Notes: generated by a model not told the origin, from the sequence alone. A stretch of DNA of 35,371 nucleotides from an uncultured Candidatus Saccharibacteria bacterium (GCA_964589195.1 CAZPQT010000002.1:1-35371); one strand, 5' to 3'. Positions 5,512 to 22,282 are shown, counted from the first letter of the stretch. Translations and numbers: made by a program.

Positions 5512-6840
5512 ATGTTTAAGTGGCTTCTCCTTTTAATCGCTTATCTTCCCTTTCAGATCGCTTTAAATCCACGGCCAGCTTTTGATTTAGCTTCGCTGCG
5601 GGTTTTTATTGTTTTATTGTTTGTTATCTGGTTGGGGAAGGCCCTTACAACGAAAAAATTGATTGGCTGGACTTGTTTTAAAAATCTTCAGAGTATTGGT
5701 TTATTTCTTTTTTTTATTTTGGCTGGTTTTTCTTTAATTGGCGCTGAAAACATTATTTGGGGATTAAGAAAGCTCATTTTTTTCCTGTCAGTTTTCCCTC
5801 TTTATTTTTTAGTTACGGCCTTGATTGATAACTGGCTAAAGATTAAAAAGATTATTTTTGCCTTGACGGGCGGGGCTGGTTTAATTGCTTTGATTGGCTT
5901 GGGGCAATTTATTGCCCCATTTATTTTTGGTCTGGATAAAATCTGTCAGTTTTGGGCCTGGCAGATTGTGCCTGTTTTTTCTGGTTTTAATTTTGGCGCT
6001 TTGATTCTAGCTTATTCCAGCTGGCTGGTTAATGTTGATGGTTATACTATTTTAAGAGCTTTTTCTCTTTTTTCCGACCCTCACATGTTTTCTTTCTATT
6101 TAGGTCTGATTTTGCCTTTAATAGTTGTTTTAATATATGTTTCTGATGCGGTTCGGTCTCGGCAAGTGCCAGACTCTAAAACTGGTTTCCTTTTTATTAT
6201 TTATTGTCTATTGTTTACCGTATTATTATTAACCTTTACTCGCGGCGCTTATTTTGCCATTATTGTTACTTTTTTGGTTTTAGCCGGACTTTTTTGGCGA
6301 TATTTAAAAGCAAAAAAAATAGCCCTGCTTCTTGGTTTATCTCTTTTGGTTTTTATTATCCCAATTACCCCTATTGCCGATAGGTTTTATTCTTCTTTTG
6401 ATATGAGCGACGGTTCCAATGTTGGCCGCTTGGAGATGTGGCAGCAAGCTGGTCTGGCCGGTTTGGAGCGCCCTTGGCAGGGAGTTGGTTTAGGCAACTA
6501 TTCTTTATTAGTTGATGCAAATTTTGGCTATCGTAACCCGATTACGGCTCATAATCTTTATTTAGATATTTTTTCAGAGATAGGTATTTTTGCTTTAATA
6601 GTTTGGTTAGTTTTAATTTTAGGGACGATGGGACAACTGTTTTGGCAGATTAGAATTACCCCGGAGGTTGACCTTAATAAGGGGCAGACCATAATAAGAA
6701 TTGGCTTGATTGGCTCTTTGGTTTATTTTTCAGTCCATAGTTTTTTTGAAACTTCTATTTATCATCCATCCATTTTAGCTCTCTTGATGATTATTCTTGG
6801 TTTGTCGTCTATTGTGGTTAATTTCAAGGACTGTCCTTGA
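5512..6840 (+). CDS. O-antigen ligase-like (Wzy_C) polytopic membrane protein
   Basis: About 10 hydrophobic helices plus a Wzy_C-type region (TFTRGAYFAI ... AHNLYLDIFSEIGIFAL). The last codons and the TGA stop lie inside the 17-nt palindrome at 6824-6840. Confidence 0.8.
   Translation: MFKWLLLLIAYLPFQIALNPRPAFDLASLRVFIVLLFVIWLGKALTTKKLIGWTCFKNLQSIGLFLFFILAGFSLIGAENIIWGLRKLIFFLSVFPLYFLVTALIDNWLKIKKIIFALTGGAGLIALIGLGQFIAPFIFGLDKICQFWAWQIVPVFSGFNFGALILAYSSWLVNVDGYTILRAFSLFSDPHMFSFYLGLILPLIVVLIYVSDAVRSRQVPDSKTGFLFIIYCLLFTVLLLTFTRGAYFAIIVTFLVLAGLFWRYLKAKKIALLLGLSLLVFIIPITPIADRFYSSFDMSDGSNVGRLEMWQQAGLAGLERPWQGVGLGNYSLLVDANFGYRNPITAHNLYLDIFSEIGIFALIVWLVLILGTMGQLFWQIRITPEVDLNKGQTIIRIGLIGSLVYFSVHSFFETSIYHPSILALLMIILGLSSIVVNFKDCP
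6824..6840. repeat. Core palindrome TCAAGGAC-T-GTCCTTGA (GGAC-N-GTCC family)
   Basis: 17-nt palindrome read directly from the sequence. It encodes the final ..KDCP-stop of the upstream ligase-like gene. Its last A is the A of the downstream ATG. Confidence 0.85.
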
Positions 6841-8063
6841 TGTCTATGCTTCAAAAAATTATTCATTTCACTATTTGTTTAATAGTTTTATCTTTGCCTC
6901 TTTATTTGATTCGTTTGAAGATTGGCTGGATGCCGACTAATCTTTTGGAATTGATGGTTGGCGTATTGTTTATTGTTTGGCTGTTGCAAATAACGCGAGG
7001 ACTGTCCTCAAACAGCAGTCCTAAGGACTGCTGTTTGAGGACAGTCCTCGCTCCCGTGTTTTTGATTTTTCTCGGCATTACTATTTCTACCCTCTTTTCA
7101 GTTGATGTGATAACTAGTGCTGGTATTTGGAAGGGCTGGTTTATTATTCCTCTGATTTTCTTTATTGTCATTATCAGTCATCTAAAGAGCAAAGAGCAGG
7201 TCAGAGACATTCTTTTCGCTTTATTTTTATCAGGAACCGGCGTGGCTTTAGTCGCCTTTTTTTATTGGTTGAATGATAATTTAACTTACGATGGTCGCTT
7301 ACGGGCTTTTTATCTTTCGCCTAATCACTTGGCCATGTATTTATCGCCTGTTCTAATTTTGTCTTTTTATTTATATCCTTCTTTTAAAAAAAATATTTCC
7401 AGAATTTTACTGTTTACAGCCGATTGTCTATTATTTACTGTCATTTACTTAACTTACTCTTACGGCGCCTGGTTAGGAATAGGAGGCGCTTTAATTTTTA
7501 TTTTAATCATTTTTTTTAGGAGTCGGACTCCTGAAAACAAAAGGCATTTTTTTTACCTGATGAGTTTTTTTCTTTTGTTGGTTGTTCTCTCCTTCGTCTG
7601 GCAAATCCCCAGTCAAAAATTTCAGGGCTTCCTTGATTTTTCTTATCCTTCCTGGCAATCCCGGCTAATTATCTGGCAAAGCGCCGGGGAAATAATAAAA
7701 GACCACTCCTTAATTGGGATTGGTCCGGGTATGTTTCAAAAATATTATTTGGCTTACCAGGCTAAATCTCCGACTTATTTAGAATGGGCTGTCCCTCAAC
7801 CTCATAACCTTTTTTTGGCTTTCTGGCTGCAAACCGGCCTGCTCGGCTTAATGGGTTTTATCTGGTTGTTGTCTATTTTTTTTAGAAGCGAGGATTCTAA
7901 AAGAAGCCTCGCTTCTAAATTGTTATCGAATATTCTAATGGCCACTATGCTCTATATCCTCATCCACGGCTTAGTTGATACCACCTACTGGAAAAACGAT
8001 TTATCAATTATCTTCTGGCTGCTCATAGCTCTAAACTATACAAATGACCGTCTCTCTTATTAA
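6840..8063 (+). CDS. Second O-antigen ligase-like polytopic membrane protein
   Basis: YSYGAWLGIGGAL ... QPHNLFLAFWLQTGLLGLMGF. The ATG at 6840 overlaps the upstream TGA (ATGA). The ORF track starts at an in-frame TTG at 6837. The gene carries a 57-nt palindromic in-frame insert at 6995-7051. Confidence 0.75.
   Translation: MSMLQKIIHFTICLIVLSLPLYLIRLKIGWMPTNLLELMVGVLFIVWLLQITRGLSSNSSPKDCCLRTVLAPVFLIFLGITISTLFSVDVITSAGIWKGWFIIPLIFFIVIISHLKSKEQVRDILFALFLSGTGVALVAFFYWLNDNLTYDGRLRAFYLSPNHLAMYLSPVLILSFYLYPSFKKNISRILLFTADCLLFTVIYLTYSYGAWLGIGGALIFILIIFFRSRTPENKRHFFYLMSFFLLLVVLSFVWQIPSQKFQGFLDFSYPSWQSRLIIWQSAGEIIKDHSLIGIGPGMFQKYYLAYQAKSPTYLEWAVPQPHNLFLAFWLQTGLLGLMGFIWLLSIFFRSEDSKRSLASKLLSNILMATMLYILIHGLVDTTYWKNDLSIIFWLLIALNYTNDRLSY
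6995..7051. repeat. 57-nt perfect palindrome (28-nt arms, 1-nt centre), GGAC-N-GTCC family, inside a CDS
   Basis: GCGAGGACTGTCCTCAAACAGCAGTCCT-A-AGGACTGCTGTTTGAGGACAGTCCTCGC. The length is 19 codons. It translates as RGLSSNSSPKDCCLRTVLA within the ligase-like protein. Confidence 0.9.
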
Positions 8064-9138
8064 CAAAAAGAAGATAATCCTCTGAGGGAGATAAGAGCAA
8101 TTGTTGAACGTCGTAGGACATTTCTTCTTCGTCAATGGGAATATAAATTTGATTTTTTTCCCCAATATCCAGGTTAATTGCCCAAAAGTCATCAGCCAAG
8201 GAGACGAGACGCTTATAATAATCGTCTGGCAAAGTGGCTAAATTAGAAATAGTTTTAGGAACAGCGCAGAAAATAGTTCGGTTGTCTTGAGACCAAACAC
8301 ATTTTTCCGGCAGAGTGACAAAATCTAATTCTTGAACAGTTGACTTAGCCAGGTCAGCTATTTTTAATTTAAGATTCTTGCCTTGGTTATCTGTTTCGGA
8401 AAAGAGCAACTTGTTTCCCAGCGGCGACCAAAGAACAGTTAAGCCGTATGTTTCACTAATGATTTTTTGGAAATCACCGGTCGCTAAATCAATTGTATAA
8501 ACGACACTTTGGGCTAAACCGCTTGGTTTAGTTCTAATAGATATTTGACTTGAACTAGGCCATTCCACAATTAAGTTTTTCATTCGGGTGGTAAAAATAT
8601 TTGTCCATTGAGAACCATCGGGATTGGCCAGACTGATGTTATTGTCTTCGGTTTGCGAGTTATGGTATTGATAAGCGATTTTGTCTTCGTTTGGTGACCA
8701 GGCAATATACTGGATATGCTGATTTAGTAAAGTTGATTTGCCAGTTTGGTAATCGTAGAGATATTTTTTTACTTCTCCCTTATCATCAAAAATAGCAATA
8801 ACCTTATCTTTATTTGACGACCAGAAAACTCTCAAGAGATTAGATAGAATATTAGGAGATAGGCGAGTTCGCTCTAAACCATCAAAAGTTGACTCAAAAA
8901 CATAGCCATTATTTTTTAAATAGTATTTAACTTTCTGGCCATCAATAATCGGGTCTAAGACCGGCTCTTGAGAAATAGCTTTAATGGGGCCGGTTAGCGA
9001 TGTTGTCGGAGTGGTTGTGGCTGATGGAGTAACCGATGGAGTTATTTCTTCTTTAAGGAAAAAATTATAGACGACCAAAAAACCCACTACAAGGATGAGT
9101 AGGATGATTGAAATGACGAGAATTTTTTTAAGAGACAT
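8023..9138 (-). CDS. Membrane-anchored TolB-like beta-propeller (PD40 repeat) protein; last gene of the T4SS-like string
   Basis: N-terminal TM helix (ILVISIILLILVVGFLVVY) and a Thr/Pro linker. Repeated W-S-P-x-x-[DN]-K motifs follow: VFWSSNKDKVIAIF, IAWSPNEDKIAYQY, VLWSPLGNKLLFSE, CVWSQDNRTIFCA, LLLSPSEDYLLFV. Confidence 0.6.
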   Translation of the reverse strand: MSLKKILVISIILLILVVGFLVVYNFFLKEEITPSVTPSATTTPTTSLTGPIKAISQEPVLDPIIDGQKVKYYLKNNGYVFESTFDGLERTRLSPNILSNLLRVFWSSNKDKVIAIFDDKGEVKKYLYDYQTGKSTLLNQHIQYIAWSPNEDKIAYQYHNSQTEDNNISLANPDGSQWTNIFTTRMKNLIVEWPSSSQISIRTKPSGLAQSVVYTIDLATGDFQKIISETYGLTVLWSPLGNKLLFSETDNQGKNLKLKIADLAKSTVQELDFVTLPEKCVWSQDNRTIFCAVPKTISNLATLPDDYYKRLVSLADDFWAINLDIGEKNQIYIPIDEEEMSYDVQQLLLSPSEDYLLFVNKRDGHLYSLEL

Positions 9139-9163
9139 AGAGTTTTTTATTTATTGATTAAAT

Positions 9164-9544
9164 TTACTCTGGTAATGTCAATGACCAGGTGACTAAATCT
9201 GGGTTGATGGTATTTAAAATCAAATAAGCGGCTAAAGCTAAAACCAAACCGGAAATAGCTCCCCAAATGTACTTTTTAGCTTCATCCTTTGAAGTGATTG
9301 TTCCCGAAAGCATATACATAAAACCGCCGTAAACCAGGGCGCCTAAAGCAGCGATGCCGACCAGGGATAAGCCAAAAAGATAGATATAGCGGATATAACC
9401 AGTTAATTCATTGGTTGGTGTTACTCCGCCAATAGTTGGATAATCTACTTCAAGTGTATATTCTGCTTGAGCATCAAAAACAATAAATAATAAACAATTA
9501 GCAATAAGCAGTAGAATAGTAATGGCAAGTATTTTAAATTTCAT
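9164..9544 (-). CDS. VirB2/TrbC-like T4SS pilin candidate
   Basis: 126 aa. A signal peptide (MKFKILAITILLLIANCLLFIVFDAQA) is followed by two hydrophobic helices joined by a short polar loop (LFGLSLVGIAALGALVYGGFMYMLSG-TITSKDEAKKY-IWGAISGLVLALAAYLIL). This is the VirB2-type topology. It resembles the T4SS_pilin family as I recall it. Confidence 0.6.
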   Translation of the reverse strand: MKFKILAITILLLIANCLLFIVFDAQAEYTLEVDYPTIGGVTPTNELTGYIRYIYLFGLSLVGIAALGALVYGGFMYMLSGTITSKDEAKKYIWGAISGLVLALAAYLILNTINPDLVTWSLTLPE

Positions 9545-9583
9545 AAATTTTGGGAGCCTTGCTTCCTTTAGGCCTTCTTTATA

Positions 9584-10333
9584 TTATGGAATAAAAGTTA
9601 TTTCAGCCGTCGTTCGAGCTCTTTGGAGGGGATTATTTTTATTTTCCACCCCAATTTTCAAATTTTGTTTGATAGATTGGATTAATTGGCCGATTTTCAA
9701 AATAAAAACATGAGGATTATCACTACTAATTTGAGAAGCTTCTCGGCCGCCTAAATTCCAATTAAAATTTAACTCATTTATACTACTAATATTAAAGAAA
9801 TATGGTTGAGCAATAAAGCTTGTTTCTTGTTCAGCGCTGATTTGGTATTCCTTAATAATTGAAGAAACAGAGGATTCCAGGGGAAGAGTTCCTTTGTTAG
9901 TTATCGGCTGGATAACGACTTGCGGCTGAACAATTCCTATGTCCAAATAAGCTGAACCCAAAAGATTTTCTTCTTTATCCCTGATTTCTACTCTAATAGA
10001 TTGTTCATTTTCGGATGTCCATTTAACTGGAAACCCAAGGACTGATTTTGCTTGGCCGGATTGTTCTGTCTGGAGATGTTTATTAAGAAACCAACGATAA
10101 TTTAATTCTTGAGGATTGACTTCTTGGGAATCAATATTAGCTGCTACCTCAATAACACTTCCTTTAACTGGCAGGGCTTTGCCTGGATAATCAAGAGGGA
10201 TATAAGTATTAGTTGACCAGGTCAAGGTGATGTTGATTTCCGAAGTTTGGCTTTGGACTGGCAAAAACCATAGAAAACAGAAAACAAAAACCAAGAACAA
10301 CAGGCAACTAATTAAACTTTGTTTTTTGCTCAT
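9584..10333 (-). CDS. Secreted hypothetical protein (T4SS-like string)
   Basis: 249-aa ORF with an N-terminal signal or anchor sequence (LISCLLFLVFVFCFLWFLPVQSQ). No motif recognised. 4-nt gap to the upstream gene. Confidence 0.7.
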   Translation of the reverse strand: MSKKQSLISCLLFLVFVFCFLWFLPVQSQTSEINITLTWSTNTYIPLDYPGKALPVKGSVIEVAANIDSQEVNPQELNYRWFLNKHLQTEQSGQAKSVLGFPVKWTSENEQSIRVEIRDKEENLLGSAYLDIGIVQPQVVIQPITNKGTLPLESSVSSIIKEYQISAEQETSFIAQPYFFNISSINELNFNWNLGGREASQISSDNPHVFILKIGQLIQSIKQNLKIGVENKNNPLQRARTTAEITFIP

Positions 10334-10337
10334 AATT

Positions 10338-10808
10338 TTATCTAAATTCTGCTACAGCTCTTCTATCGATAACGCCTCCTTGTAGCTTTCTTAATCCCTC
10401 TTCAGCTATTTGTCCCTTTTTCTGCGTTATATACCATCCCCAGGCAATAGAAATTATCCAAGTCGGAATAGGATCTACAAAAGGGATTAGTTCAAAAAGC
10501 CCGGCTAAAGAAATAATTATCCATATTTTCAATCTTATATGTCCACCGAGGCTCATCGTAAAACCGAAAAGAATCGCCCAGACAATAAGATCAATAACAT
10601 CTCCAATAATTGGAATTGAGCCAATGATGCCAATGTCAGCTAAATCATTATAAGCAGCTAACATAAAAGCAAAGGGCCAGACCCAAATTTGTTTATCTTC
10701 TACTGCTTTTGTCATTCTCTGGACTACTTTATTTGATATTCTCGCAGCCAATTTTGCTTTTATGCCTTTGGCTTTATCTTGATTAAATTGGGCGCTATAA
10801 TCAGGCAT
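10338..10808 (-). CDS. Small polytopic membrane protein, hypothetical (T4SS-like string)
   Basis: 156 aa with 3-4 hydrophobic helices (IWVWPFAFMLAAY, IIGSIPIIGDVIDLIVWAILFGF, IWIIISLAGLFELIPFV, IPTWIISIAWGWYI). No family recognised. Confidence 0.65.
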   Translation of the reverse strand: MPDYSAQFNQDKAKGIKAKLAARISNKVVQRMTKAVEDKQIWVWPFAFMLAAYNDLADIGIIGSIPIIGDVIDLIVWAILFGFTMSLGGHIRLKIWIIISLAGLFELIPFVDPIPTWIISIAWGWYITQKKGQIAEEGLRKLQGGVIDRRAVAEFR

Positions 10809-10871
10809 TGTTTTTTGGAGCCCTGCCTTTAGACAGGGATTAGTCCTTGACTAAAGTCGGGACCCCGATAG

Positions 10872-12902
10872 TTAGTAAGCAGTATCTTTTTCTCCTTTTT
10901 CTTCGGCAGCTGGCTTGGGAATGGCTTCGGGTGCGGGTTCAGAAGCGGGTTGAGGGGCAGGTTCAACATCAGGTTTAGCAACGGGTTCAGGGGCAGATTT
11001 TAAAACGGATTCAGAAGCGGGTTCAGTTGTCAGTTCGGGAACGGCTTCGGGCGTAGGTTTGGGAATAGCCGGCGCGGCCGTGGGGTGAGGAATGGATTCG
11101 CTTTCGGATGTTGTTTCTTCTTCAGCCAATTCTTCTTTAGCTTTTTGTATTTCCATTAACTGAGCTGGGTCAGAAGTAATAATTTGGTCTTCGGTATAGG
11201 AGGCGATTATCTTGATAGCCACATGTTTTAGGCCGGCGAAAAAGAGACCCTCGCCGACCGGACATTCCAAAAGCATATATTTCTCCTGGTCAGTCAAATT
11301 AAAAGTTTCTTTGATTACTTCAATCGTGGCCGGCGACTGCTTTAAGAGAAGCTGTAAAGAAGAGTTAGTCACAATCGGCTTGCCGTATTTGGATTTCATA
11401 AAATCAGCCACATCCTGGGTAATAGTAGTTAAGCCAAGGTAATATTTGCGGCATCTCTTGGCAATACCATAAAGGAAGGAACCAGCGTCATCGTGCTGCA
11501 TCATCCACCAGGCCTCGTCAACCACCATCATTCTCTTTTTTTTCTCAGCGCGAATAACGTTCCAGATATAGCGTAAGACAACATACATAGCCAGTGGCCT
11601 TAATTCATCTTCCATATCCCGAATACTAAAGACAATTAATTTATTCTTTAATTGAACGTTGGTTGGTTGGTTAAAAAAGCCCGCGTAACTGCCGCTAACA
11701 TATTTTTCTAAGCGGGTCGCCAAGCTTTCTCCGCCAGTCATCCCTTTTAAAATAGCATAAAGGTCTGACATTAAAGGCGGGCTGATTTTACTAAAATCAG
11801 ATTCCGGCGTAATATCGCGAGCGGCGTAAGTTTGAGTTAAGGCCTTATCCATAACGGCATCCTCTTCAGGAGTCAGGCCGCCCAGCATCATTCTTAAAAG
11901 ACCGACTAAATTAATGATATTACTTCTCAATAGGTTGGCTGGCTTATCGTCTGGTCCGGGGATAGGCAGGTCAAATGGGTTAAGGTTATTGGGCGAAGTT
12001 AAGGAAATATCAATAAACGAACCGCCAACTGTCTCCGCTAAATACTTGTATTCTTTTTCCGGGTCAATGACAATCACTTCAGTATCCTGCATTAAGGAAC
12101 GGAGAATTTCTAATTTAATTGCGTATGATTTTCCTGAACCTGACTTGGCAAATACGCACATATTGGCGTTTTCCAAACCAAAGCGGTCAAATAGAATTAA
12201 AGAGTTGTTGTGTCGGTTAATACCATATAGAATCCCCTTATTATCAGTCAAATCAGAAGAGATAAAGGGAAAATTAGAGGAAAGAGAGGCAGTATTTAAA
12301 CTGTTGTGAATAAGGAGCTTATCTTCTTCTAAGGGGAGAGTGGAGATAAAGCCCTGTTCCTGCTGAAAGACAGCTGGTTTAGCATAAATACTCTGGTTTT
12401 CCAAGAGGGCCCTGATTTTATTTTCAATTTCATCTAATTGTTTAGCGGAATCAGCAAAAAAAGTGAGATAAAGGCCGAATTTGAAAAGCCGTTCTGCCCC
12501 TTGCTGGAGTTTATCGCGCAGCTCTTCAATATTTTTGAGAGCTGTTTCCAAAACCGGGCTGCGGACTTTGCCTTTTTCTTGCTGGAGAGACATTTGGGAC
12601 TGGATTTGGGCTGTTTTTTTGGTTAAGTTTTTCAAAATAACACCTGTTTCAAAAGGATGAATAAACAGAGCAATATTCATTTCCTGGTCCAGAGTGATTA
12701 AAGGCGAAAGCCAGCCAGTATTCAAAACAGCTGGATAAGTAAAGACAAAAATAGTTCGGCCGTATTTTTCGCCAATTTGAAAATAATTAGAATCAATTTT
12801 CAAGCCAGCCGGGGCAATCATATCAACCAAGCTGGTTGGTTGGCTTATTTCGGGAAATTCTTCTCCGCCTATGGCAGATTCATTTTTTTTAAATAGGGGC
12901 AT
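10872..12902 (-). CDS. virB4: VirB4/TrbE-family T4SS ATPase with a C-terminal Pro/Glu/Ala-rich tail
   Basis: Walker A CVFAKSGSGKSYAIK (about nt 12121-12160). Walker B MMVVDEAWWMM (about nt 11499-11531). VirB4-type N-domain (IAPAGLKIDSNYFQIGEKYGRTIFVFTYPAVLNTGWLSPL). The last ~85 aa are low complexity (PKPTPEAVPELTTEPASE...PAPQPASEPAPEAIPKPAAEE). Confidence 0.9.
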   Translation of the reverse strand: MPLFKKNESAIGGEEFPEISQPTSLVDMIAPAGLKIDSNYFQIGEKYGRTIFVFTYPAVLNTGWLSPLITLDQEMNIALFIHPFETGVILKNLTKKTAQIQSQMSLQQEKGKVRSPVLETALKNIEELRDKLQQGAERLFKFGLYLTFFADSAKQLDEIENKIRALLENQSIYAKPAVFQQEQGFISTLPLEEDKLLIHNSLNTASLSSNFPFISSDLTDNKGILYGINRHNNSLILFDRFGLENANMCVFAKSGSGKSYAIKLEILRSLMQDTEVIVIDPEKEYKYLAETVGGSFIDISLTSPNNLNPFDLPIPGPDDKPANLLRSNIINLVGLLRMMLGGLTPEEDAVMDKALTQTYAARDITPESDFSKISPPLMSDLYAILKGMTGGESLATRLEKYVSGSYAGFFNQPTNVQLKNKLIVFSIRDMEDELRPLAMYVVLRYIWNVIRAEKKKRMMVVDEAWWMMQHDDAGSFLYGIAKRCRKYYLGLTTITQDVADFMKSKYGKPIVTNSSLQLLLKQSPATIEVIKETFNLTDQEKYMLLECPVGEGLFFAGLKHVAIKIIASYTEDQIITSDPAQLMEIQKAKEELAEEETTSESESIPHPTAAPAIPKPTPEAVPELTTEPASESVLKSAPEPVAKPDVEPAPQPASEPAPEAIPKPAAEEKGEKDTAY

Positions 12903-12906
12903 ATTT

Positions 12907-13578
12907 TTATTGGATTCTCATTTCTTTGGCTTTTTGGAGCTCTGGTTCTTCTTTGGCGCTGGGGTTATATAATTTATAGAAAAGCTCAACTATTTCTTCG
13001 GTTTTTAAGGGGATGGCCTTAAGGCCGATTCCTTGCAGGCCAGAAATGACAAACTCCATTCTTTGCCAAAGATTATTTTTAATTTCTTGAAATTTTTCTT
13101 CCTGGACCGCTGGTTGTTTTTTTCCGCCTCCAAAAAACTTACTGAAGAATCCTGCCTTTTTGACAATAGAGGGACTGTAAGGAATTACCAGATAAAAGGA
13201 TTCAGTCATAACATTAGTCATTTCAGTTAATTCTTTGATAAAATCAATATATTCCGAGGTCTGGATTTTTAAGAGTTCGTTTTCTTGTTGATTTTGTTTT
13301 TGTTCTAGCATTTCAATGTAGGGGGTGATGTCAAATTTTCGAGAGGCGGCCACAATTTGGATGGGAAAGTCAAGGGAATTGAGGAGATTTTGATAACGAT
13401 AGATGGTGGCATCTTGTTCTTCAGTTGATTTAAGGGCAAAGTTTAAGCTGCTGGTCATTAAAATAGCCCGCCAGCCGCCGCTTTTAAGAATAATGACATC
13501 GTCTCTAATCTCTTTAATTGATAAATGCTGTTGAATGGAAGCTGATTTTTTTTGTTGAGGCATTATTTTTTTCTCCAA
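12907..13578 (-). CDS. Hypothetical protein, possibly a detached N-terminal module of VirB4
   Basis: 223 aa with no TM helix. IKEIRDDVIILKSGGWRAILMTSSLNFALKSTEEQDATIYRYQNLLNSLDFPIQIVAAS resembles the extreme N-terminus of long Gram-positive VirB4 proteins, as I recall them. There is a 4-nt gap to virB4 and a 16-nt overlap with the PrgI-like gene. Confidence 0.45.
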   Translation of the reverse strand: MEKKIMPQQKKSASIQQHLSIKEIRDDVIILKSGGWRAILMTSSLNFALKSTEEQDATIYRYQNLLNSLDFPIQIVAASRKFDITPYIEMLEQKQNQQENELLKIQTSEYIDFIKELTEMTNVMTESFYLVIPYSPSIVKKAGFFSKFFGGGKKQPAVQEEKFQEIKNNLWQRMEFVISGLQGIGLKAIPLKTEEIVELFYKLYNPSAKEEPELQKAKEMRIQ

Positions 13579-13841
13579 AGATATAATCTCGGTTTTCTTA
13601 GATACTTAATTAAGGAACCTAGGAAAGAAATAAAGGGTCGGCCATTGACTTTGTAAAAAGCTAAAGCGCCGCAAAGAAGACCAACCGGAATAGCTACCGC
13701 AATAAAAAGACCTAATTTAAGAAAAAACCAAAGCAGAAAAAGCGAACCTGCCCCGGCGCCGATATAGAGAAACTGTTTTAGGGTCAATGGCCCGATTATC
13801 TTGTCCTCTACTTCAATAAATTGGGGAACATCGAATTTCAT
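13563..13841 (-). CDS. PrgI-family (VirB3-like) small membrane protein
   Basis: 92 aa. MKFDVPQFIEVEDKIIGPLTLKQFLYIGAG is followed by two TM helices (SLFLLWFFLKLGLFIAVAIPVGLLCGALAFY). Size, topology and position immediately upstream of VirB4 are typical for VirB3/PrgI. Confidence 0.6.
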   Translation of the reverse strand: MKFDVPQFIEVEDKIIGPLTLKQFLYIGAGAGSLFLLWFFLKLGLFIAVAIPVGLLCGALAFYKVNGRPFISFLGSLIKYLRKPRLYLWRKK

Positions 13842-13843
13842 AT

Positions 13844-14713
13844 TTATTTATTTTTTAAATCAACCACATTTCCTTCTATTTTTGGTTCAACTTGACCAGG
13901 TCTAGGCGGCTCTTCAACAGGTTCCCGATAGATATCGCGGCGGCTCGGCTCTGGTTCAGTCGGTTGAGGAGAAGAAGGCGAGAGCGGTCGGGCAGGGCTT
14001 GGCTGGGCAGGCAAAGGAACCGGTTGACCAGGAAATGGGCTGGGAGTTATGGGAGTTACCGGAGGGCTTGGCCCGGAAGGAGCCGCCTTTTCTCTTAAAG
14101 CAAGCCCGTCAGCGTAAAGTTTGAAGGTATTATAGAAAGTCAGAATTTTACCCAATGTTTCCCTGTCGCTTTCTGATAATTTTTTAGCATTCTGGTTATT
14201 AAATAAATAATCAGCTTCTTCTATTTGGCTGGGATTTTTTGCTTTGACGCTTCCAATAAAGTCAAGCAGCCAATTTTTAACCCAAGATTTAACCGGGGCT
14301 GATTCCCCTTTTACGTCAATTGGCTGACTGCCTAAGTTTTGTTTATTTTTCCTTAAAGCCGAGAGGATTTCATTGATGGTTTCTCTAAGATTAACCCCAA
14401 ACTGAAGTTCTAATTTAGCCGTGACCAAATCAATTAAACTAACATCCAAGGCCAAACCTTCTAAAAAATGTTTCTCAACCAATTCTGAAAATTCTTGGTC
14501 GTTTCTAATCAAAGGACAAGCTACCCACTTTAATTGAGCAATTAGTTTTTGATACTGGGCAAAGAGAGCTCGGTCAGTCATTTCCAAATCAGCCACCGGT
14601 CGTTCTAATTGGCGGGACCATTCCAGGGCCTTTTTTCTTTGTAAATGTTCAAAAATTGGCTGGGCTTTCTCCAGGATAATTTTTAATTGTTCAGCAGTAA
14701 GTTGAATAGCCAT
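13844..14713 (-). CDS. Hypothetical soluble protein with a Pro-rich C-terminus (T4SS-like string)
   Basis: 289-aa ORF with no TM helix. The C-terminal ~80 aa are Pro-rich (APSGPSPPVTPITPSPFPGQPVPLPAQPSPARPLSPSSPQPTEPEP). 2-nt gap to the PrgI-like gene. Confidence 0.7.
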   Translation of the reverse strand: MAIQLTAEQLKIILEKAQPIFEHLQRKKALEWSRQLERPVADLEMTDRALFAQYQKLIAQLKWVACPLIRNDQEFSELVEKHFLEGLALDVSLIDLVTAKLELQFGVNLRETINEILSALRKNKQNLGSQPIDVKGESAPVKSWVKNWLLDFIGSVKAKNPSQIEEADYLFNNQNAKKLSESDRETLGKILTFYNTFKLYADGLALREKAAPSGPSPPVTPITPSPFPGQPVPLPAQPSPARPLSPSSPQPTEPEPSRRDIYREPVEEPPRPGQVEPKIEGNVVDLKNK

Positions 14714-14736
14714 TTTTTTTATTTGATATTTATTAT

Positions 14737-17088
14737 TTAACCAAAAGCGCCTGGCGGGGATTTAGCCCGGGCCTCTCTAAATGCTTTTTCAGTTGGTGGA
14801 ACAGTGCTGGATTGGCTTTCTCCACGTTTCCAAGAGCTAAGTTCCGAGGCCATTTTTGCTTCTTCAGCTCCGACCATTCTTTTCATCTCCTCTATTTGTT
14901 CATCTGTTCTTTCTGTTAGCCTTTTACTTAATGCCTTATAAAGTTCCGGATTTATCTTTTCTGTTTCTTTAGCGTGTTTAAGCATAAGCGTACCGATAAC
15001 CTCGTCGGGTATTCTGTTAGCGTGTTCTGCCGGGAGACCGCTAATCCACATTTCATGACCTTTGATACCCATGTCTTTAGGTGGCACATCCTTAGATTCA
15101 GAAATAATACTTAAGCGGTGAGTAAATCTGGCTCGTTCTTGAGGTTCCATTCTTGACCAGGCCTTATTGGCTTCCATTAAGGCCTCTTTACTTCCATTTT
15201 CTACTCCTAATTCTTTAACAAGATTCTTATAAGTGGTCTTGCCTGTCTTTTCGTCATATTCTGATTTAAAGACCCGACCCTGCCATTGACCGACCTTTTC
15301 CGATGACTTATTAAGGTCATGGCCCAAGCGATAAGCGTCCTGTTCTCCTAAAAGTGGCTTTAATTGTTCTTCGGTAAATTTAGATATGCCCTCGGCATCG
15401 AAATTATAACCAGGACCAACTTTTCCTATCAAGTCATTGAGGTCGCCTTGGGCAGCTGCTTTCATGGCATAGGCAGCTGCTTTTGATCCAAGACCAGCTT
15501 CCTGGGCTTTTTTAAAGCCACCAGTTAATTCTTCGGAGTTAGTCGTCACTATTTTATTTTCCTCTTCTATCCGTTCGGCTCTTTTAGCCCGTTCCAAATA
15601 ATCGCTTTTTTCTTTACCTAAGGAGAAAGCGCCGGTGAGCTTATCTTGCAGGGCCGGGGCTGATAATCGATAGGCCCCGCGTTCGGCTTCTTCTCGGCGA
15701 GCCGCCCAGCCCCTTTTCCAGACGCCAGGGGAAACGTAAGGGACAATTTTCCTCTTAGCTCGACCTAAAGCTTGTATACCGGTAACTTTGCTTATTCTTT
15801 CTACTCCTTTGGCTGCTTTTTCTAATTTAAGTCTTCTCAAACCGGAGGCCAAGCTTGGGAATTTACCTCCGCTGGCTAACCAGCGGTTCACTCCGCTAGC
15901 CGCTCCTTTGCCAAACCATTTAGCCACGCCCATGGCGCCATTGGCGCCGGCAATGCCCATTTTTTGAGCAACAACCAGAGAACCGAGGAGCATACCGCAG
16001 ACGAGAAGAAACTGAACAAAATTTGTCGGTTCCATTATTTGGGGGACCAGCCGCGAGCCGAGCATCTCATCACTAACTATTTGCTTGACACCTTCAACTG
16101 CGCTACTTCCTGAAGGGGAAATAAACTGCGACCAGGATTTAACGCTTAGCCAAATAAAAAAGAAAGCCGCCGGAGCAAAAAAGACCCATTTAATGAAAGT
16201 GTTCCACCATTGGCTAAAAAGGTGCCGGGTGGCTGGTAAAACCCAAAAAAGCCAGGCAATGGGAGCTAAAATAAGCAGGAACCAAATAATCATGATCCTG
16301 GCTAATAAAAGAAAGGCTAAGGCGCCAAAAACAAAAGCGGCCACCACAGTAAAGATAATGGAAAAAAATAAAGAAATAATTACGGCCCAGTAACTATCAC
16401 TAAGTCCTTTCCAGTCATTTTCTGTTTGTATCTTAGCCTCGGTTGGCATTGGTTCACAGGTTCCTTGGCAGGAATTGCATTGAAACGCTGTCAATCCTTC
16501 GACTGATGTTTCTGCCATTATACACCGGAAGCTTTCACCTTTTTTTTCAGCCGTGGTAGTCATAATTTTAGGTAATTTCATAGCACTAGCAATATCTTTA
16601 AAAAATACTTGGCCATCGCCAACAAAAAAGTTGGTCAAGACACCGGAAAAATCAATGACCACTCCGGCAAAGACCAAACTAAAGTTAATCAAAAGAGCGG
16701 CGATAATCAGTTTTGGCAAAAGAGATTTCATGCCATAGGTTTCTATTCGTAAAATCGTGGCAAAGGCAATGGCCAAAAGAATTAAAACAAAGAACATATT
16801 AGCTAAATCACGAGCCACTTTCCAGCCCTCTTGAACTAATTTGGCTTTTTGCGGATCAGTAAAGTTAAGAATGCCCAGGCCTAAGGCAGCTAACCATGTG
16901 ACTATAGTGCCAATCATTCCCTGAATAGACAAAAGAATATCGCCGATGATACTTTTTAGACCATCAACGATACCTAAATCTACTGCCTTGGCATCTTTAG
17001 CTCCCAAAACAAAAATTCCTAAAGAAGTAATCAGGAAGATTAAACTAAAAATAATTAGCTGTTTTTTTGTTTTTAGCCAGCTTGGCAT
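14737..17088 (-). CDS. VirB6/TrbL-like polytopic membrane protein with a long hydrophilic C-terminal domain
   Basis: 783 aa. It has an N-terminal signal or anchor and at least 6 hydrophobic helices (FFVLILLAIAFATIL, IIAALLINFSLVFAGVVIDF, YWAVIISLFFSIIFTVVAAFVFGALAFLLLARIMIIWFLLILAPIAWLFWV, FFAPAAFFFIWL, FLLVCGMLLGSLVVA). A Cys-rich loop (CIMAETSVEGLTAFQCNSCQGTCEP) is present. A charged, coiled-coil-like C-terminus of about 380 aa follows. The assignment rests on topology and context only. Confidence 0.5.
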   Translation of the reverse strand: MPSWLKTKKQLIIFSLIFLITSLGIFVLGAKDAKAVDLGIVDGLKSIIGDILLSIQGMIGTIVTWLAALGLGILNFTDPQKAKLVQEGWKVARDLANMFFVLILLAIAFATILRIETYGMKSLLPKLIIAALLINFSLVFAGVVIDFSGVLTNFFVGDGQVFFKDIASAMKLPKIMTTTAEKKGESFRCIMAETSVEGLTAFQCNSCQGTCEPMPTEAKIQTENDWKGLSDSYWAVIISLFFSIIFTVVAAFVFGALAFLLLARIMIIWFLLILAPIAWLFWVLPATRHLFSQWWNTFIKWVFFAPAAFFFIWLSVKSWSQFISPSGSSAVEGVKQIVSDEMLGSRLVPQIMEPTNFVQFLLVCGMLLGSLVVAQKMGIAGANGAMGVAKWFGKGAASGVNRWLASGGKFPSLASGLRRLKLEKAAKGVERISKVTGIQALGRAKRKIVPYVSPGVWKRGWAARREEAERGAYRLSAPALQDKLTGAFSLGKEKSDYLERAKRAERIEEENKIVTTNSEELTGGFKKAQEAGLGSKAAAYAMKAAAQGDLNDLIGKVGPGYNFDAEGISKFTEEQLKPLLGEQDAYRLGHDLNKSSEKVGQWQGRVFKSEYDEKTGKTTYKNLVKELGVENGSKEALMEANKAWSRMEPQERARFTHRLSIISESKDVPPKDMGIKGHEMWISGLPAEHANRIPDEVIGTLMLKHAKETEKINPELYKALSKRLTERTDEQIEEMKRMVGAEEAKMASELSSWKRGESQSSTVPPTEKAFREARAKSPPGAFG

Positions 17089-17123
17089 TTTAACTAAACT
17101 CTAATTAGATTCTTATTCCTCGT

Positions 17124-19169
17124 TTATTGTGTGCCTTCTTTTTCTTCATTTCCTGGCGTTGTACAGATTGAATAAATATTTTGTGCTTCAGAAAGACTGA
17201 CTTGCAAAGATTGTTTTTGAACATAGAGAGTGCCTGCTTCGGGGTATTCTTCACTGAAGCCGCGGGCTTGCAGAAGATTGTCCACTGTTTGGTTAACAGT
17301 CATATTAGCCTCTTGAGTATCATTGCTAAGCCCAGACATATCTTCAGATGAAGATTGGGCGGCTGCTTGCCCATCACTAATAAGCAATTCTAAAGCTATT
17401 TGGACAGCGTCTCTTTCGGTATCTAAGGCAGCTTGCTCTTCGTCGGTTGGCGGCTGCAAGGTTTCGTCAAAGAGGGTAACATATTCATCTACTTTCTCAA
17501 TAAAGTCGTTGGTTGAGGCGATGGCCGTGGCGGTATCAGTAATCCGTTGGTTGGTTGAACTAATGTTTTCTCCCAAGCCGGTTATCTGGCTGGTTATCTG
17601 GGGACTGATTTCCAGAATTTCATGAAGATGGTAAGTAACATATCCAGGAGTACAATAACCTTCGTGTTCATAAGCGCAACTACTCCATTTTTGCCAACTC
17701 GATTTTTTAATTGAAATACTGCCTATATTGGAAGCAGTAATTTGAAATATTTCTATGGTTCGCTCACTTTCATCAATGGCCTGGGCCGGTTCTGTATATG
17801 TGCTGGTCATTTGAGAATTAGCCCAGAGAGGTAAAGAACAGTCAACTGCGAAAATAGTTTCTAAAGTAGTTAGAATATTGCTTTGTATAGTTTCTATGCT
17901 TGTCATAACGCTCAAATTAGATTGTTGTTGAGGCAGTAGTTGGGTTTCTAAATTTTCTTTGAGAAATTCTTGTTGATCAACTAAGAAAGCGGCCATATCT
18001 GCCGCAATCATAGCCTCAGCCGGGCTTTCTATGTCAGCAATGGGACTGCCGGCTGGCAAAGGTTCGTCCGGATTCTCTACGGTTGGTCCGGTTATTTGAA
18101 TTTTTTCTAATCCTTCCTGAATTAGTCGGTTAATTAAGGCATTGCCGATAGCCACAACATAGGGGGCGAAAGTACCAAGGTTAGCGGTCATGGTCGCTAC
18201 TTCTTGACCTAGGATATCCATTTCCCGGTCCATGGCTCGGCTGGTTACGTCAGATAAAACTGAAGCCGGTGTTTGGACTTTTTCTTCTTCACAAATAAAA
18301 GAATAATCCATATCGCCTTCAACTGATTCTTTGGCGCTCTTACAACTTCCAATATCATTACAGACACTATTAACTTCCTGGGTATAATTATCTACAACTT
18401 TTCCTCTGATACAAACCTTGACTGACAAAAAGCCGCTGCCAGCCATTCCTTCCTGCCCAGCTGCTTCTTTAGCTTTCTCTTCTTGAATTTTTTTCTCGGT
18501 TTGAGCAACGAGATAACCGCCGTAAAAATTACCTTGCGGTTTAGTTAGTTCAATCCAACCCATCCAGCCTGCTTCCTTAAAATCATCATAAAACATTTTA
18601 ATATTAATACCCATATCTTCCAGAGTACATTTGACTCTTTCATCAAAAGTAGACACGCCTAACAAAGGGATTTTAATGGCTATATCAAATGGTTCACAAA
18701 GCCAGCCGGCACCTAAATATTTATCCACAAATAAGCCGCCGGCTTTGTTGCCTGCGTCTCCAAGAAAACCTTCCCAATCACTAATAAATTTTGGTTCGCC
18801 GCCGCCTTGAATCCATAAAATAATCTCATTAGTCAGCATATTCATAAGCGTATGAATAGCTATTGTCGCAGCCACCCGGGTGACCCGAGCCAGCAAAGTA
18901 TCGCTCTTTTGCCAAAGGGCAATAGCTGTTTTTATGTTATCGGCGGCATAAGCATAGGCCGCTTGAACTCTTTCCCAAGCCCATTTGGCCGCGTCTTTAA
19001 CGGCATTATAAGCTCGTTGGGCGTAAGCTACTAAATCTACAAAGGTAAGGGCTTCGACTGGTTTAGGATAAAATAAAACCCAGGCGCCTGCCAAAAAAAT
19101 CATGGTGATGATTAAAACAGCGGCTAAATTTCCTTGCAAAAGAGAATTTTTATAAAATAGATTAAACAT
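17124..19169 (-). CDS. Large membrane-anchored extracytoplasmic hypothetical protein (T4SS-like string)
   Basis: 681-aa ORF with one N-terminal TM helix (LAAVLIITMIFLAGAWVLFY). The remainder is predicted to be extracellular, with several Cys residues (CEPF, KCTLED, VCIRG, VCNDIGSCKS, FICEEE, SSCAYEHEGYCTPG). No family recognised. Confidence 0.7.
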   Translation of the reverse strand: MFNLFYKNSLLQGNLAAVLIITMIFLAGAWVLFYPKPVEALTFVDLVAYAQRAYNAVKDAAKWAWERVQAAYAYAADNIKTAIALWQKSDTLLARVTRVAATIAIHTLMNMLTNEIILWIQGGGEPKFISDWEGFLGDAGNKAGGLFVDKYLGAGWLCEPFDIAIKIPLLGVSTFDERVKCTLEDMGINIKMFYDDFKEAGWMGWIELTKPQGNFYGGYLVAQTEKKIQEEKAKEAAGQEGMAGSGFLSVKVCIRGKVVDNYTQEVNSVCNDIGSCKSAKESVEGDMDYSFICEEEKVQTPASVLSDVTSRAMDREMDILGQEVATMTANLGTFAPYVVAIGNALINRLIQEGLEKIQITGPTVENPDEPLPAGSPIADIESPAEAMIAADMAAFLVDQQEFLKENLETQLLPQQQSNLSVMTSIETIQSNILTTLETIFAVDCSLPLWANSQMTSTYTEPAQAIDESERTIEIFQITASNIGSISIKKSSWQKWSSCAYEHEGYCTPGYVTYHLHEILEISPQITSQITGLGENISSTNQRITDTATAIASTNDFIEKVDEYVTLFDETLQPPTDEEQAALDTERDAVQIALELLISDGQAAAQSSSEDMSGLSNDTQEANMTVNQTVDNLLQARGFSEEYPEAGTLYVQKQSLQVSLSEAQNIYSICTTPGNEEKEGTQ

Positions 19170-19171
19170 TT

Positions 19172-20167
19172 TTAATATTGGTCAAGTTTATCAGCTAATT
19201 TTAGAAACATTTGTTTAAGCAAATCTTTAGTAACTTTATACTGTTCCAAAGCTAAATTTGTTTTGAGCGGGTCCTGGTCTATCTGTTTAATTGCTTTGAA
19301 AATATTGGCGGTTACCTGAAAAATACCGATTTGTTCTTTGTGAATATCTTTTAAGCCAGCCGGCACTGGGATTTGCTTGAGTTCTTCAGCGGCTCCTTGA
19401 TAGAATTTGATGTATTTATCAATTTCAGTAAAATCTCTATCTTGAATAGCATAATAAAAAAGCTCGCTTTCTGATTCAAATGAATTTCCCTGGTCAATAG
19501 AACTTTTAGATTCCCATTGCTCAATAGCTTCAACCATTTTTCCAGCATAGAATTGAATGGCCGCTTGACTGTTATCAGCCGAGATAACTATTTCTTCATC
19601 GGGAATATGAGGCAAGGAAAATTCCTCCATGGCTTGACTGATTACTTGCTGAATAGCGGTGTTGACAATACGATTAGACGTACTGATTGAAGACGGGTCT
19701 AAGACATCTGATATTGATTCCATCCCCTGGTTAGTTATTTTTTCTCTTAAACTCCCGGCCAAAGCTATAGTCAGGTTGTGGGGTATGGAACGGGGCTTAG
19801 TTGGGTCTCTATCGGGCAATTCATCATTAGGCGCCGGGATAGTAGGATTATATCCGGAGGCAACTTCTTCGCCGTCAAGATAACCATCTCCGTCAGTATC
19901 GGGCTTACAGGCATCCGTTTGCCAGGTTATTTCCTGCCAATCCATTAGTCCGTCATTATCGCTGTCTTTGTTTTTATCATCAGGATTTGGTTGGCAACTA
20001 GCCATGGTTTTTTTACTTTGTTCAAGGATTTGAGAGAGTTGTTCGCTGATTGAAGCGGTGCCGATTTTACTTTTCAAAACCAAATATCCGCCAATAGTTA
20101 TGCCTATCAGTAATAGAAAAACAACCGCAAAGATATTTATTTTTTTGAATGATTTTAGCGGCTTCAT
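19172..20167 (-). CDS. Membrane-anchored protein with thrombospondin-type-3-like acidic Ca-binding repeats; first gene of the T4SS-like string
   Basis: 331 aa. N-terminal TM helix (INIFAVVFLLLIGITIGGYLVL), then DKNKDSDNDGLMDWQEITWQTDACKPDTDGDGYLDGEEVASGYNP (D-x-D-x-D-G repeats). 2-nt gap to the next gene. Confidence 0.65.
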   Translation of the reverse strand: MKPLKSFKKINIFAVVFLLLIGITIGGYLVLKSKIGTASISEQLSQILEQSKKTMASCQPNPDDKNKDSDNDGLMDWQEITWQTDACKPDTDGDGYLDGEEVASGYNPTIPAPNDELPDRDPTKPRSIPHNLTIALAGSLREKITNQGMESISDVLDPSSISTSNRIVNTAIQQVISQAMEEFSLPHIPDEEIVISADNSQAAIQFYAGKMVEAIEQWESKSSIDQGNSFESESELFYYAIQDRDFTEIDKYIKFYQGAAEELKQIPVPAGLKDIHKEQIGIFQVTANIFKAIKQIDQDPLKTNLALEQYKVTKDLLKQMFLKLADKLDQY

Positions 20168-20941: not shown

Positions 20942-20957
20942 GGAGGAGGCGAAGGAA

Positions 20958-22276: not shown

Positions 22277-22282
22277 AGATGA

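Follow-up and report, generated by a model that had tools for sequence, protein, structure and literature searches.

The contig considered here (CAZPQT010000002.1 of assembly GCA_964589195.1, deposited as an uncultured Candidatus Saccharibacteria bacterium) was analysed as a single window of 35,371 nt, and this report concerns a string of genes in it that resembles a type IV secretion system (T4SS). Eleven co-directional open reading frames (ORFs) on the minus strand form one string running from position 20167 down to 8023, and they are numbered g01 to g11 in that order. An earlier, sequence-only reading of the same DNA (the original prediction) had listed eleven ORFs; all of its coordinates, from 19172-20167 through 8023-9138, were reproduced exactly. 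The spacings from g01 to g11 are, in order, +2, +35, +23, +2, -16, +4, +63, +4, +39 and +25 nt, so that the previously reported range, a 16-nt overlap to a 63-nt gap, was also recovered. The 3' end of g11 overlaps a convergent Wzy-like gene (6837-8063, plus strand) by 41 nt. The products assigned to T4SS families are as follows.

10872-12902, minus strand: g07, 676 aa, VirB4 ATPase core with MPF_FATA (CD1110/CTn2) affinity (Pfam, NCBIfam, PDB, Walker motifs)
12907-13578, minus strand: g06, 223 aa, TrsD-like protein, a detached VirB4 N-terminal segment (NCBIfam matches; 16-nt overlap with g05)
13563-13841, minus strand: g05, 92 aa, PrgI/VirB3-like small membrane protein (PF12666)
14737-17088, minus strand: g03, 783 aa, 'extended' VirB6/TrbL-like polytopic protein, predicted membrane channel (PF04610 and topology)
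9164-9544, minus strand: g10, 126 aa, VirB2/TrbC-like T4SS pilin (PF18895, NF045849, topology)

The prediction of a VirB4 ATPase with Walker A and B motifs at 10872-12902 was verified by several matches. The g07 product was recognized by Pfam families P-loop_TraG (1.5e-24) and CagE_TrbE_VirB (1.8e-8) and by the NCBIfam model for the CD1110-family VirB4 (1.8e-113; 380 bits, the curated cutoff being 325). Among known structures, the VirB4 C-terminal domain (4ag5, 5e-46) and TrwK (1.7e-9) were matched. Walker A (AKSGSGKS) begins at residue 252 and Walker B (MMVVDE) at residue 458. Relatives of this VirB4 were found in 80 species-representative genomes, all of them Patescibacteria, with 47-91% identity to g07; these loci, labelled L002 and so on, served as the comparison set. 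The closest named relatives belong to Ca. Portnoybacteria (72-78% identity), and the best identity overall was 91%.

The g07 protein ends in a Pro/Glu/Ala-rich tail of about 80 residues (residues ~597-676; 10872-11114), coded partly by imperfect repeats with a 36-nt spacing (10934-11026). Most of the VirB4 relatives lack this tail, and their alignments to g07 end near residue 596. In Ca. Portnoybacteria RIFCSPLOWO2_01_FULL_43_11 (MHNE01000024.1; L010), tblastn located a VirB4 that is 75% identical to g07 over residues 18-596, and genes for PrgI, TrsD, the pilin, and the propeller were found with it. A recent survey of Patescibacteria T4SSs (Quinonero-Coronel et al., 2025; PMC12102498) lists this assembly in its supplementary genome table, where its row ends with 'No' and the neighbouring rows with 'Yes', in a column without a legible heading in the available text. 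If that column denotes VirB4 detection, L010 was missed by the survey.

The gene immediately preceding, g06, ends 4 nt upstream of g07. Its N-terminal ~130 residues match TrsD (NF041427, 1.5e-5), positions 2-122 of 752 in the NCBIfam CD1110 VirB4 model, and positions 92-233 of 894 in the mycoplasma VirB4 model (2.7e-12), and g07 covers positions 186-733 and 292-893 of these two models, respectively. The g06 and co-located VirB4 families showed no similarity when their profiles were compared with hhalign (probability 0.05). Because the two products match complementary parts of the same models and do not resemble each other, they are complementary and not paralogous, and a duplication of the N-terminal domain of the adjacent VirB4 was rejected as the origin of g06. 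Taken together, g06 and g07 correspond to a single full-length monoderm VirB4 whose gene is split. Moreover, g05, g06, and g07 match successive parts of the NCBIfam SCO6880 family model, which fits collinearity with VirB3-VirB4 fusions. The 223-aa product was one of seven that had previously been called unassignable; as a TrsD-like protein it is a known T4SS subunit, and the earlier statement needs correction for this one of the seven only. Verification of the 92-aa PrgI/VirB3-like protein predicted at 13563-13841 came from PF12666, which g05 matches at 1e-11 with 45.7 bits, above the gathering score of 27. The PrgI family is present in 52 of the 80 loci, directly upstream of the TrsD-like gene, which itself was found in 55.

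All transmembrane (TM) segments of g03 lie within residues 1-380. The protein also has a Cys-containing external loop and a hydrophilic C-terminal domain of ~400 aa, a layout that corresponds to the 'extended VirB6' type of a 2025 FEMS review (PMC12857230). The match of g03 itself to TrbL (PF04610; 8.3e-5, 22.9 bits) falls below the gathering score of 25.9; in a Pfam scan of orthologues, 13 of 31 family members matched TrbL (best 1.6e-7), and the VirB6/TrbL-like assignment originally made for 14737-17088 was thus verified at the family level. The family occurs upstream of PrgI in 39/80 loci. In a close relative (L005:5905-8590) three consecutive ORFs of 189, 480, and 235 aa stand in place of the VirB6-like gene, which may reflect a frameshift, an error of assembly or a real split. 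The pilin, g10, was likewise confirmed through its family. It carries a Sec signal peptide (…DAQA|E) and two hydrophobic helices, in line with the earlier description of the 126-aa product, and a charged loop lies between the helices. By itself it matches PF18895 at 2.7e-5 (24.6 bits; gathering score 26.6) and the NCBIfam model NF045849, Mbov_0395 pilin-like conjugal transfer protein, at 1.2e-4. Among its 23 family members, 20 match PF18895 (best 3.4e-17) and five match TrbC/VirB2. The locus has one pilin gene and no pilin array.

The original prediction had pointed to the absence of VirD4, relaxase, VirB11, VirB1-type hydrolase, and integrase. Absences of this kind apply to the 35-kb contig, and there they were borne out: Pfam scans of all ORFs revealed no VirD4/TraG-type coupling protein (T4CP), relaxase, VirB11, lytic transglycosylase or integrase. 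The only coupling-protein signal was a marginal T4SS-DNA_transf match inside g07 itself (0.032), with no separate T4CP, and the sole ATPase of the T2SSE family in the window is a PilB with an MshEN domain that belongs to a type IV pilus cluster. Pfam and NCBIfam detected neither DNA-binding nor nuclease domains in the eleven products. No direct repeats bracket the module (an oriT-like feature was looked for only by way of repeats), and no compositional break was detected at the module. An Rfam scan of the window gave two tRNAs only (tRNA-Pro and tRNA-Gly), 12 kb from the module, and no known RNA element upstream of the operon. An integrative and conjugative element (ICE), for which a relaxase, VirD4, and an integrase with att repeats on the contig had been named as evidence, was therefore rejected: there are no att repeats, no integrase, and no adjacent tRNA. 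The flanks hold KsgA, UvrD, the type IV pilus cluster, and a two-component system, as well as envelope genes (DUF3160, PGA_cap, YkuD, and two Wzy-like genes), in agreement with the housekeeping and envelope setting first described. KsgA is located 1.3 kb upstream of the module, and this arrangement is conserved in relatives.

Conservation of gene order in related genomes, a check proposed with the original prediction, was observed. The order g01-g02-VirB6-(g04)-PrgI-TrsD-VirB4-g08-g09-pilin-propeller is intact in L002, L005-L008, L011, and L013-L015, and those same loci share the flanking genes, with KsgA and UvrD upstream and a convergent Wzy-like gene downstream. The order is retained in a Taylorbacteria locus (L020) at 26-59% identity, and it was also detected with iterated profiles in L024, L027, L034, L038, and L049. 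Doudnabacteria retain VirB6, g04, PrgI, TrsD, VirB4, and the propeller. Saccharibacteria loci have pilin arrays instead, in line with the published description. In Gracilibacteria loci VirB4 alone was seen, where the alternative genetic code possibly hampers ORF calling. Pairwise tblastn under-detected g04 (9 loci) and g08 (1 locus), and inspection of ORFs by position together with iterated profiles was needed for both. Such stability of gene order and of housekeeping flanks across species argues for vertical chromosomal inheritance and not for a mobile element. The ratio of nonsynonymous to synonymous changes (pN/pS) against orthologues is below 1 for all eleven ORFs, ranging from 0.12 (VirB4, g07) to 0.65 (g08), with 0.19 for g06, 0.26 for g01, 0.27 for g11, and 0.40 for g02; the ratios are rough, since synonymous sites are near saturation. 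Values below 1 throughout mark real genes and not chance ORFs, and all eleven show purifying selection. The accessory genes are collinear, constrained, and widespread within Paceibacteria.

Six co-conserved partners accompany the core: g04 and g08 on the cytoplasmic or membrane side, and g01, g02, g09, and g11, each with a single N-terminal TM or signal segment, which are N-terminally anchored or exported.

19172-20167, minus strand: g01, 331 aa, N-terminal TM anchor and Ca-binding TSP3 (thrombospondin type 3) repeats (PF18884, topology)
17124-19169, minus strand: g02, 681 aa, N-terminal TM anchor, Cys-rich core, helical stalk (topology, alignment, AlphaFold2 model; no Pfam or NCBIfam match)
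13844-14713, minus strand: g04, 289 aa, soluble all-alpha helical-repeat body (residues 7-210), Pro-rich linker, C-terminal peptide (AlphaFold2 model, alignment)
10338-10808, minus strand: g08, 156 aa, small membrane protein with about three TM segments (topology; 17 positional orthologues aligned)
9584-10333, minus strand: g09, 249 aa, exported or N-terminally anchored beta-rich protein (hydrophobic segment at residues 2-30)
8023-9138, minus strand: g11, 371 aa, last gene, N-terminal TM anchor, Thr/Pro linker, TolB-type beta-propeller (profiles)

The 681-aa Cys-containing exoprotein of the original prediction was found to have ten Cys residues and one N-terminal TM segment. Six of the Cys fall within residues 119-360, the most conserved region of g02. 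In the AlphaFold2 model, residues 380-670 were predicted with high confidence (pLDDT, the per-residue model confidence, >90) and the N-terminal half, including residues 119-360, was modelled poorly. The C-terminal half consists of long helices that carry a four-strand beta insertion (450-523), which is hydrophilic and the least conserved part of the protein. The g02 protein matches nothing in Pfam or NCBIfam, and Foldseek against PDB and viral libraries gave nothing with a TM-score above 0.2. The family is very large: exhaustive profile search retrieved 5,304 representatives clustered at 50% identity at E<=1e-3 and 1,908 at E<=1e-30, where a word-indexed search returned 37 relatives only. The N-terminal TM segment is present in 130 of the 143 family representatives listed. 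A cryptic VirB1-like hydrolase or VirB8-like protein was sought in g02, in six divergent long orthologues, and in the ten longest representatives without support from Pfam or NCBIfam, and neither a lysozyme nor an NTF2 fold was seen in the AlphaFold2 model. A ClyA/NheA-type pore former was rejected for the C-terminal domain, as NheA appeared only at Foldseek rank 38 (E=0.4) and the insertion is hydrophilic and the least conserved part. A phage receptor-binding or tail-like protein was rejected as well, since the search of BFVD gave nothing above the same TM-score of 0.2. We predict g02 to be a surface-exposed structural or host-contact component.

Among the ten longest members of the g02 family, a Pfam domain was found in one only. 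This protein (P0185; L081:659-3142) is a positional orthologue of g02, lies in a g01-g02-VirB6-g04 context, and carries a C-terminal Pretoxin-HINT domain (PF07591, 1.1e-10); it ends 14 residues past the HINT domain and has no toxin domain. The PT-HINT domain is typical of secreted polymorphic-toxin carriers. The fusion, a single case, would fit an outward-facing, cargo-presenting role for g02 and is no proof of it.

The 289-aa product, g04, had been described as a soluble protein with a Pro-rich tail, and it indeed contains 10.4% Pro and no TM segment; it is predicted to be cytoplasmic. The all-alpha body was modelled with pLDDT >90 over residues 10-210, and the Pro-rich linker behind it is disordered. 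No sequence match was found in Pfam, NCBIfam or PDB. A known adaptor, chaperone or TPR family was considered and rejected; the best Foldseek match in PDB had an E of 0.59 (designed helical repeats), and the profile search of PDB returned noise. The C-terminus is near-invariant (...YxEP...EP[KR]IEGN[VI][VI]DLK) and is conserved in 33/33 homologues (13844-13900 in the window). The proteins that occupy the slot between VirB6 and PrgI vary from 136 to 369 aa and have divergent bodies, and all end in EP[KR][IL]xGN[VI][VI][DN]L[KR]. The peptide terminates ORFs of 136-187 aa in L002:6930-7385, L003:1938-2381, L008:8669-9079, and L033:5263-5826, and also the 369-aa orthologue in L081:5450-6559. Shared as it is across divergent bodies, the peptide, and not the body, is what this slot conserves. 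It is likely a short linear docking motif, and g04 is predicted to act as an adaptor or docking factor.

The remaining partners were characterized mainly by family profiles. The TM segment of g01 spans residues 4-35, and its TSP3_bac repeats (PF18884, 1.2e-7), in which D68, D70, D72, and E79 are invariant in the family, agree with the 331-aa Ca-repeat anchor of the original prediction. The C-terminal domain is mostly helical, its fold is unassigned, and profile search of PDB matched the Ca-binding stretch only. From its topology, g01 is predicted to face outward. Its family occurs in 22/80 loci, where it stands first in the string every time. The g08 family was found directly downstream of virB4 in 21 loci by iterated profile search. 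Conserved features of g08 are an N-terminal MPDYxxQLNQ(D/E)R motif, D55, D58, P115, and W117, and a Lys-rich linker; no significant match was obtained in Pfam, NCBIfam or PDB. The g09 protein has 95 homologue clusters, the named ones from Portnoybacteria. Five of 39 family members match PKD families weakly (best 8.6e-6), and a profile search of PDB gave nothing; the protein probably consists of two Ig (immunoglobulin)/PKD-like sandwich domains. The family profile of g11 matches TolB in PDB (2.3e-9), and matches to TIGR02800 TolB (2.1e-6) and DPPIV_N (2.4e-5) were obtained as well, which supports the 371-aa TolB-like propeller proposed before; the family is present in 24/80 loci, including those of Taylorbacteria and Doudnabacteria. 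No sequence match to a VirB8-like protein was found among the products; the models of g02 and g04 are not NTF2-like, and g09 looks more like a PKD/Ig-type protein. Neither the eleven products nor their long orthologues contain a lysozyme, SLT, CHAP or M23 domain that would indicate a VirB1-like hydrolase.

T4SSs of Patescibacteria have been described previously. Transposon sequencing has shown that Southlakia epibionticum cannot grow as an epibiont without an 'apparent T4SS' (SEML1_0006-0019; Wang et al., 2023; PMC10633639). That system is most like Gram-positive conjugative systems. Its pilin array is essential, neither coupling proteins nor relaxases are recognisable in it, and lysozyme-like, NTF2-like, and exported Ig/PEGA proteins accompany it (PMC10633639). 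In the survey of Quinonero-Coronel et al. (PMC12102498), most Patescibacteria VirB4 proteins formed one clade related to MPF_FATA. TrsD, PrgI/VirB3, VirB6, and PF18895-type VirB2 pilins were found near virB4, TrsD homologues were the most abundant T4SS component beside virB4, and ksgA, dnaA, and dnaN were common virB4 neighbours (PMC12102498). Paceibacteria is the best-represented class in the survey, and its dataset lists Portnoybacteria genomes (class Paceibacteria), including the source of L006 (PMC12102498). The 2025 FEMS review (PMC12857230) lists the Patescibacteria T4SSs as a distinct newcomer to the superfamily.

The locus described here has the features of this clade. In common with the Southlakia system and the surveyed loci are an MPF_FATA-related VirB4 with a TrsD-like gene directly upstream, PrgI/VirB3, an extended VirB6, and a PF18895 VirB2-like pilin, which is unusual for a monoderm; the chromosomal position near ksgA and the lack of a relaxase or T4CP nearby are shared as well. 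An exported Ig-like protein is encoded in both the Southlakia cluster (SEML1_0005) and this locus (g09), and g09 may be the counterpart of that Ig/PEGA protein. Southlakia differs in its six-gene pilin array, two VirB6-like genes, triple lysozyme-like protein, NTF2/VirB8-like protein, and 300-aa PrgI. In the present locus the pilin and VirB6 are each encoded once, neither a hydrolase nor an NTF2 protein is recognisable, and a Paceibacteria-type set of g01, g02, g04, g08, and g11 is present instead. These five are not named as T4SS components in the accessible text and supplements of PMC10633639 and PMC12102498. With the monoderm MPF_FATA systems (CTn2 CD1110, pGO1 Trs, and pCF10 Prg) the locus shares a VirB4 above the CD1110 cutoff, TrsD and PrgI homologues, and the lack of an outer-membrane core. 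In contrast to them, it has no relaxase, T4CP (PcfC/TcpA), VirB1-like PrgK/TrsG, VirB8-like PrgL/TraM or PrgB-type adhesin, it is not part of a mobile element, and it possesses a VirB2-like pilin, which is missing from MPF_FATA. Mycoplasma ICEs are similar in the pilin match to NF045849, in the VirB4 model (Mbov_0397) that g06 and g07 cover jointly, in the small pilin-like protein beside VirB4, and in the wall-poor or monoderm envelope of their carriers. They differ in being mobile and having their own DNA-processing genes and in encoding VirB4 as a single 894-aa protein, and the scores obtained here are far below the equivalog cutoffs.

We consider it highly probable that this locus encodes a chromosomal, vertically inherited Patescibacteria-type T4SS, derived from monoderm MPF_FATA conjugation machinery and uncoupled from DNA processing, in a Portnoybacteria-like member of Paceibacteria. 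The chromosomal, non-conjugative T4SS-like device of the original prediction is thereby supported: the contig has no relaxase, VirD4, integrase or att site, the string is conserved, and only one of the seven products called unassignable proved to be a known T4SS subunit. This inference has precedents, as the same conclusions were already published (PMC10633639; PMC12102498). The class of system was described in 2023-2025, and five or six of the conserved partners match nothing characterised. New here are the complementary matches of TrsD and VirB4 as evidence for a split VirB4; the size of the g02 family, its lack of a detected fold relative, and its one pretoxin-HINT fusion; the collinearity, constraint, and wide occurrence of the accessory genes within Paceibacteria; and the conserved C-terminal peptide at the g04 position.

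In the proposed arrangement, g06 and g07 would assemble as a hexameric motor docked on g05 and g03 at the membrane, with the PrgI protein g05 tethering VirB4 to the membrane. The g04 and g08 proteins would be accessory factors of the inner complex, g04 probably docking through its C-terminal peptide. The membrane channel would be formed by g03, and g10 would polymerise into a short pilus or conduit. The proteins g01, g02, g09, and g11 would form the wall-spanning, host-contact part, in place of the unrecognised VirB8-like and VirB1-like proteins. Such a machine would most likely mediate contact-dependent transfer between epibiont and host rather than conjugation. As to direction, we put the chances of protein or effector export, or of display of a contact structure, at about even; ComB-like import of host DNA or nucleotides seems only about half as probable, and other roles take up what is left. 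A more specific and tentative proposal, which we regard as rather unlikely in its entirety, is that g01, g02, g04, g08, g09, and g11 constitute a Paceibacteria-specific sub-assembly replacing the VirB8/VirB1 layer. The g02 protein would then be a pilus-associated or wall-spanning host-contact protein, its variable head setting host specificity and carrying pretoxin-HINT cargo in some lineages, and the g04 peptide would couple the adaptor to the VirB4/VirB6 motor in place of VirD4. If true, this would connect the essential T4SS of Patescibacteria with delivery into host bacteria in the style of polymorphic toxins.

Several points weigh against the interpretation as an uncoupled T4SS. The g03 and g10 proteins alone score just below the Pfam gathering thresholds, and their assignments rest on family-level matches. 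A coupling protein may exist elsewhere in the genome, as VirD4-like genes have been found far from virB4 in many Patescibacteria genomes (PMC12102498). The roles given to g01, g02, g04, g08, g09, and g11 come only from topology, co-conservation, and gene position, and g02 and g04 are without a fold match. The promoter proposed for the string is a sequence match only. In a 2024 PNAS perspective (PMC11665869) the function of the T4SS is described as 'completely unknown', with effector delivery and ComB-like uptake given as hypotheses.

Among the alternatives uptake is the most probable, and we regard it as possible, if not favoured: the locus would encode a DNA or nucleotide uptake machine, similar to ComB of Helicobacter pylori or Ced of Sulfolobales, that feeds an organism unable to make nucleotides. 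This hypothesis was raised because comEC is dispensable in Southlakia and the T4SS is essential (PMC11665869; PMC12857230). ComB is chromosomal and, as here, lacks a coupling protein, relaxase, and VirB11; however, it is a diderm VirB-type system (MPF_T) with a VirB7-10 core, and the relationship is seen only at the level of the VirB4 superfamily. A weak match of g07 to the archaeal DNA importer CedB (9.9e-13) amounts to 47.6 bits against a cutoff of 700, and that to CedD to 21.4 bits against 600, so that the CedB match reflects only the shared VirB4/HerA ATPase fold, a superfamily-level likeness. The best VirB4 matches are conjugative MPF_FATA proteins. The position beside uvrD, 5 kb from a type IV pilus cluster, might suggest DNA uptake, but the adjacency of uvrD and ksgA is a conserved housekeeping context and no evidence of function; the lack of DNA-binding and nuclease domains and the pretoxin-HINT module of a g02 orthologue, which points to outward delivery, also speak against import.

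A functional conjugative T4SS whose genome carries the relaxase, oriT, and coupling protein at some other place is improbable in our judgement. The closest characterised relatives of the VirB4 (CD1110/CTn2 and mycoplasma ICE) are indeed conjugative, the pilin matches a mycoplasma ICE pilin-like model, 5,713 VirD4-like proteins are known from Patescibacteria genomes, mostly far from virB4 (PMC12102498), and the window shows 35 kb of the genome. Relaxases, however, were found in only 103 Patescibacteria genomes and rarely near virB4 (PMC12102498), and the distant t4cp homologue of Southlakia is non-essential while its T4SS genes are essential (PMC12102498). In the loci compared here, many species keep the same gene order and housekeeping flanks, and the contig shows no integrase, att site or compositional break. 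Least credible of all is a decaying, non-functional remnant of an integrated conjugative element, as might be proposed from the split VirB4 and from the canonical monoderm parts that were not found (VirB1-like hydrolase, VirB8-like protein, T4CP, and relaxase). None of the eleven ORFs is disrupted and all show purifying selection, the gene order is kept across orders of Paceibacteria, and the homologous system is essential in Southlakia (PMC10633639). The split itself, being kept in 55/80 loci, counts against decay. By conservation and selection, the remnant explanation is effectively refuted.

A large part of bacterial diversity belongs to the Patescibacteria, whose cultivated members are obligate epibionts. 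No T4SS before theirs had been shown to be essential for its own carrier (PMC11665869). The present locus represents a compact, single-pilin, eleven-gene version of the machine from Paceibacteria and adds no new category; its accessory set, with one uncharacterised and very large protein family and a putative docking peptide, offers targets for structural and genetic work on the exploitation of hosts by epibionts.

A candidate promoter upstream of g01 was read directly from the sequence.

20176-20204, minus strand: candidate promoter, -10 TATAAT (20176-20181) and -35 TTGGGT (20199-20204) with a 17-nt spacer

This sequence is present where the original prediction had placed a promoter, whereas the consensus scan and the site counts give it no support. 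The -10 is perfect, and the -35 agrees with the consensus at 3/6 positions, which is too weak for the consensus scan, so that the site is absent from its output. In the region, 36 promoter-like sites were found against 27 +/- 5 expected, no clear excess over chance. The -10 ends 8 nt from the ATG of g01, within an upstream region of 228 nt, and a transcript from this site would thus be nearly leaderless. This promoter and a single operon for g01-g11 are plausible and unproven. A Shine-Dalgarno-like sequence was recognised before none of g01-g11, whose upstream regions are all A-rich.

Between the T4SS and the type IV pilus cluster lie KsgA, UvrD, and two poorly conserved small ORFs (20396-21452). 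The pilus cluster (24243-30882, same strand) encodes a 482-aa protein without a Pfam match, two pseudopilins with N-methyl motifs, PilC (T2SSF), and PilB (T2SSE and MshEN); one of the pseudopilins has CarboxypepD_reg/SpaA-like domains. A response regulator and a histidine kinase follow. A family of near-perfect palindromes of ~64 nt (TTTAGGGACAGTCCCT...AGGGACTGTCCCTGA) is present at 21933-21996, 22278-22341, 22872-22935, and 29002-29044. Two copies fall within the coding sequences of KsgA and UvrD and leave the frame intact; the one in KsgA codes for residues 94-115, an insertion of 16-17 aa when compared with the L007 and L008 orthologues. Of the remaining copies, one lies where KsgA and UvrD meet and one in the intergenic stretch between PilC and PilB. 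These palindromes recall the Rickettsia palindromic elements, which insert in-frame into genes.

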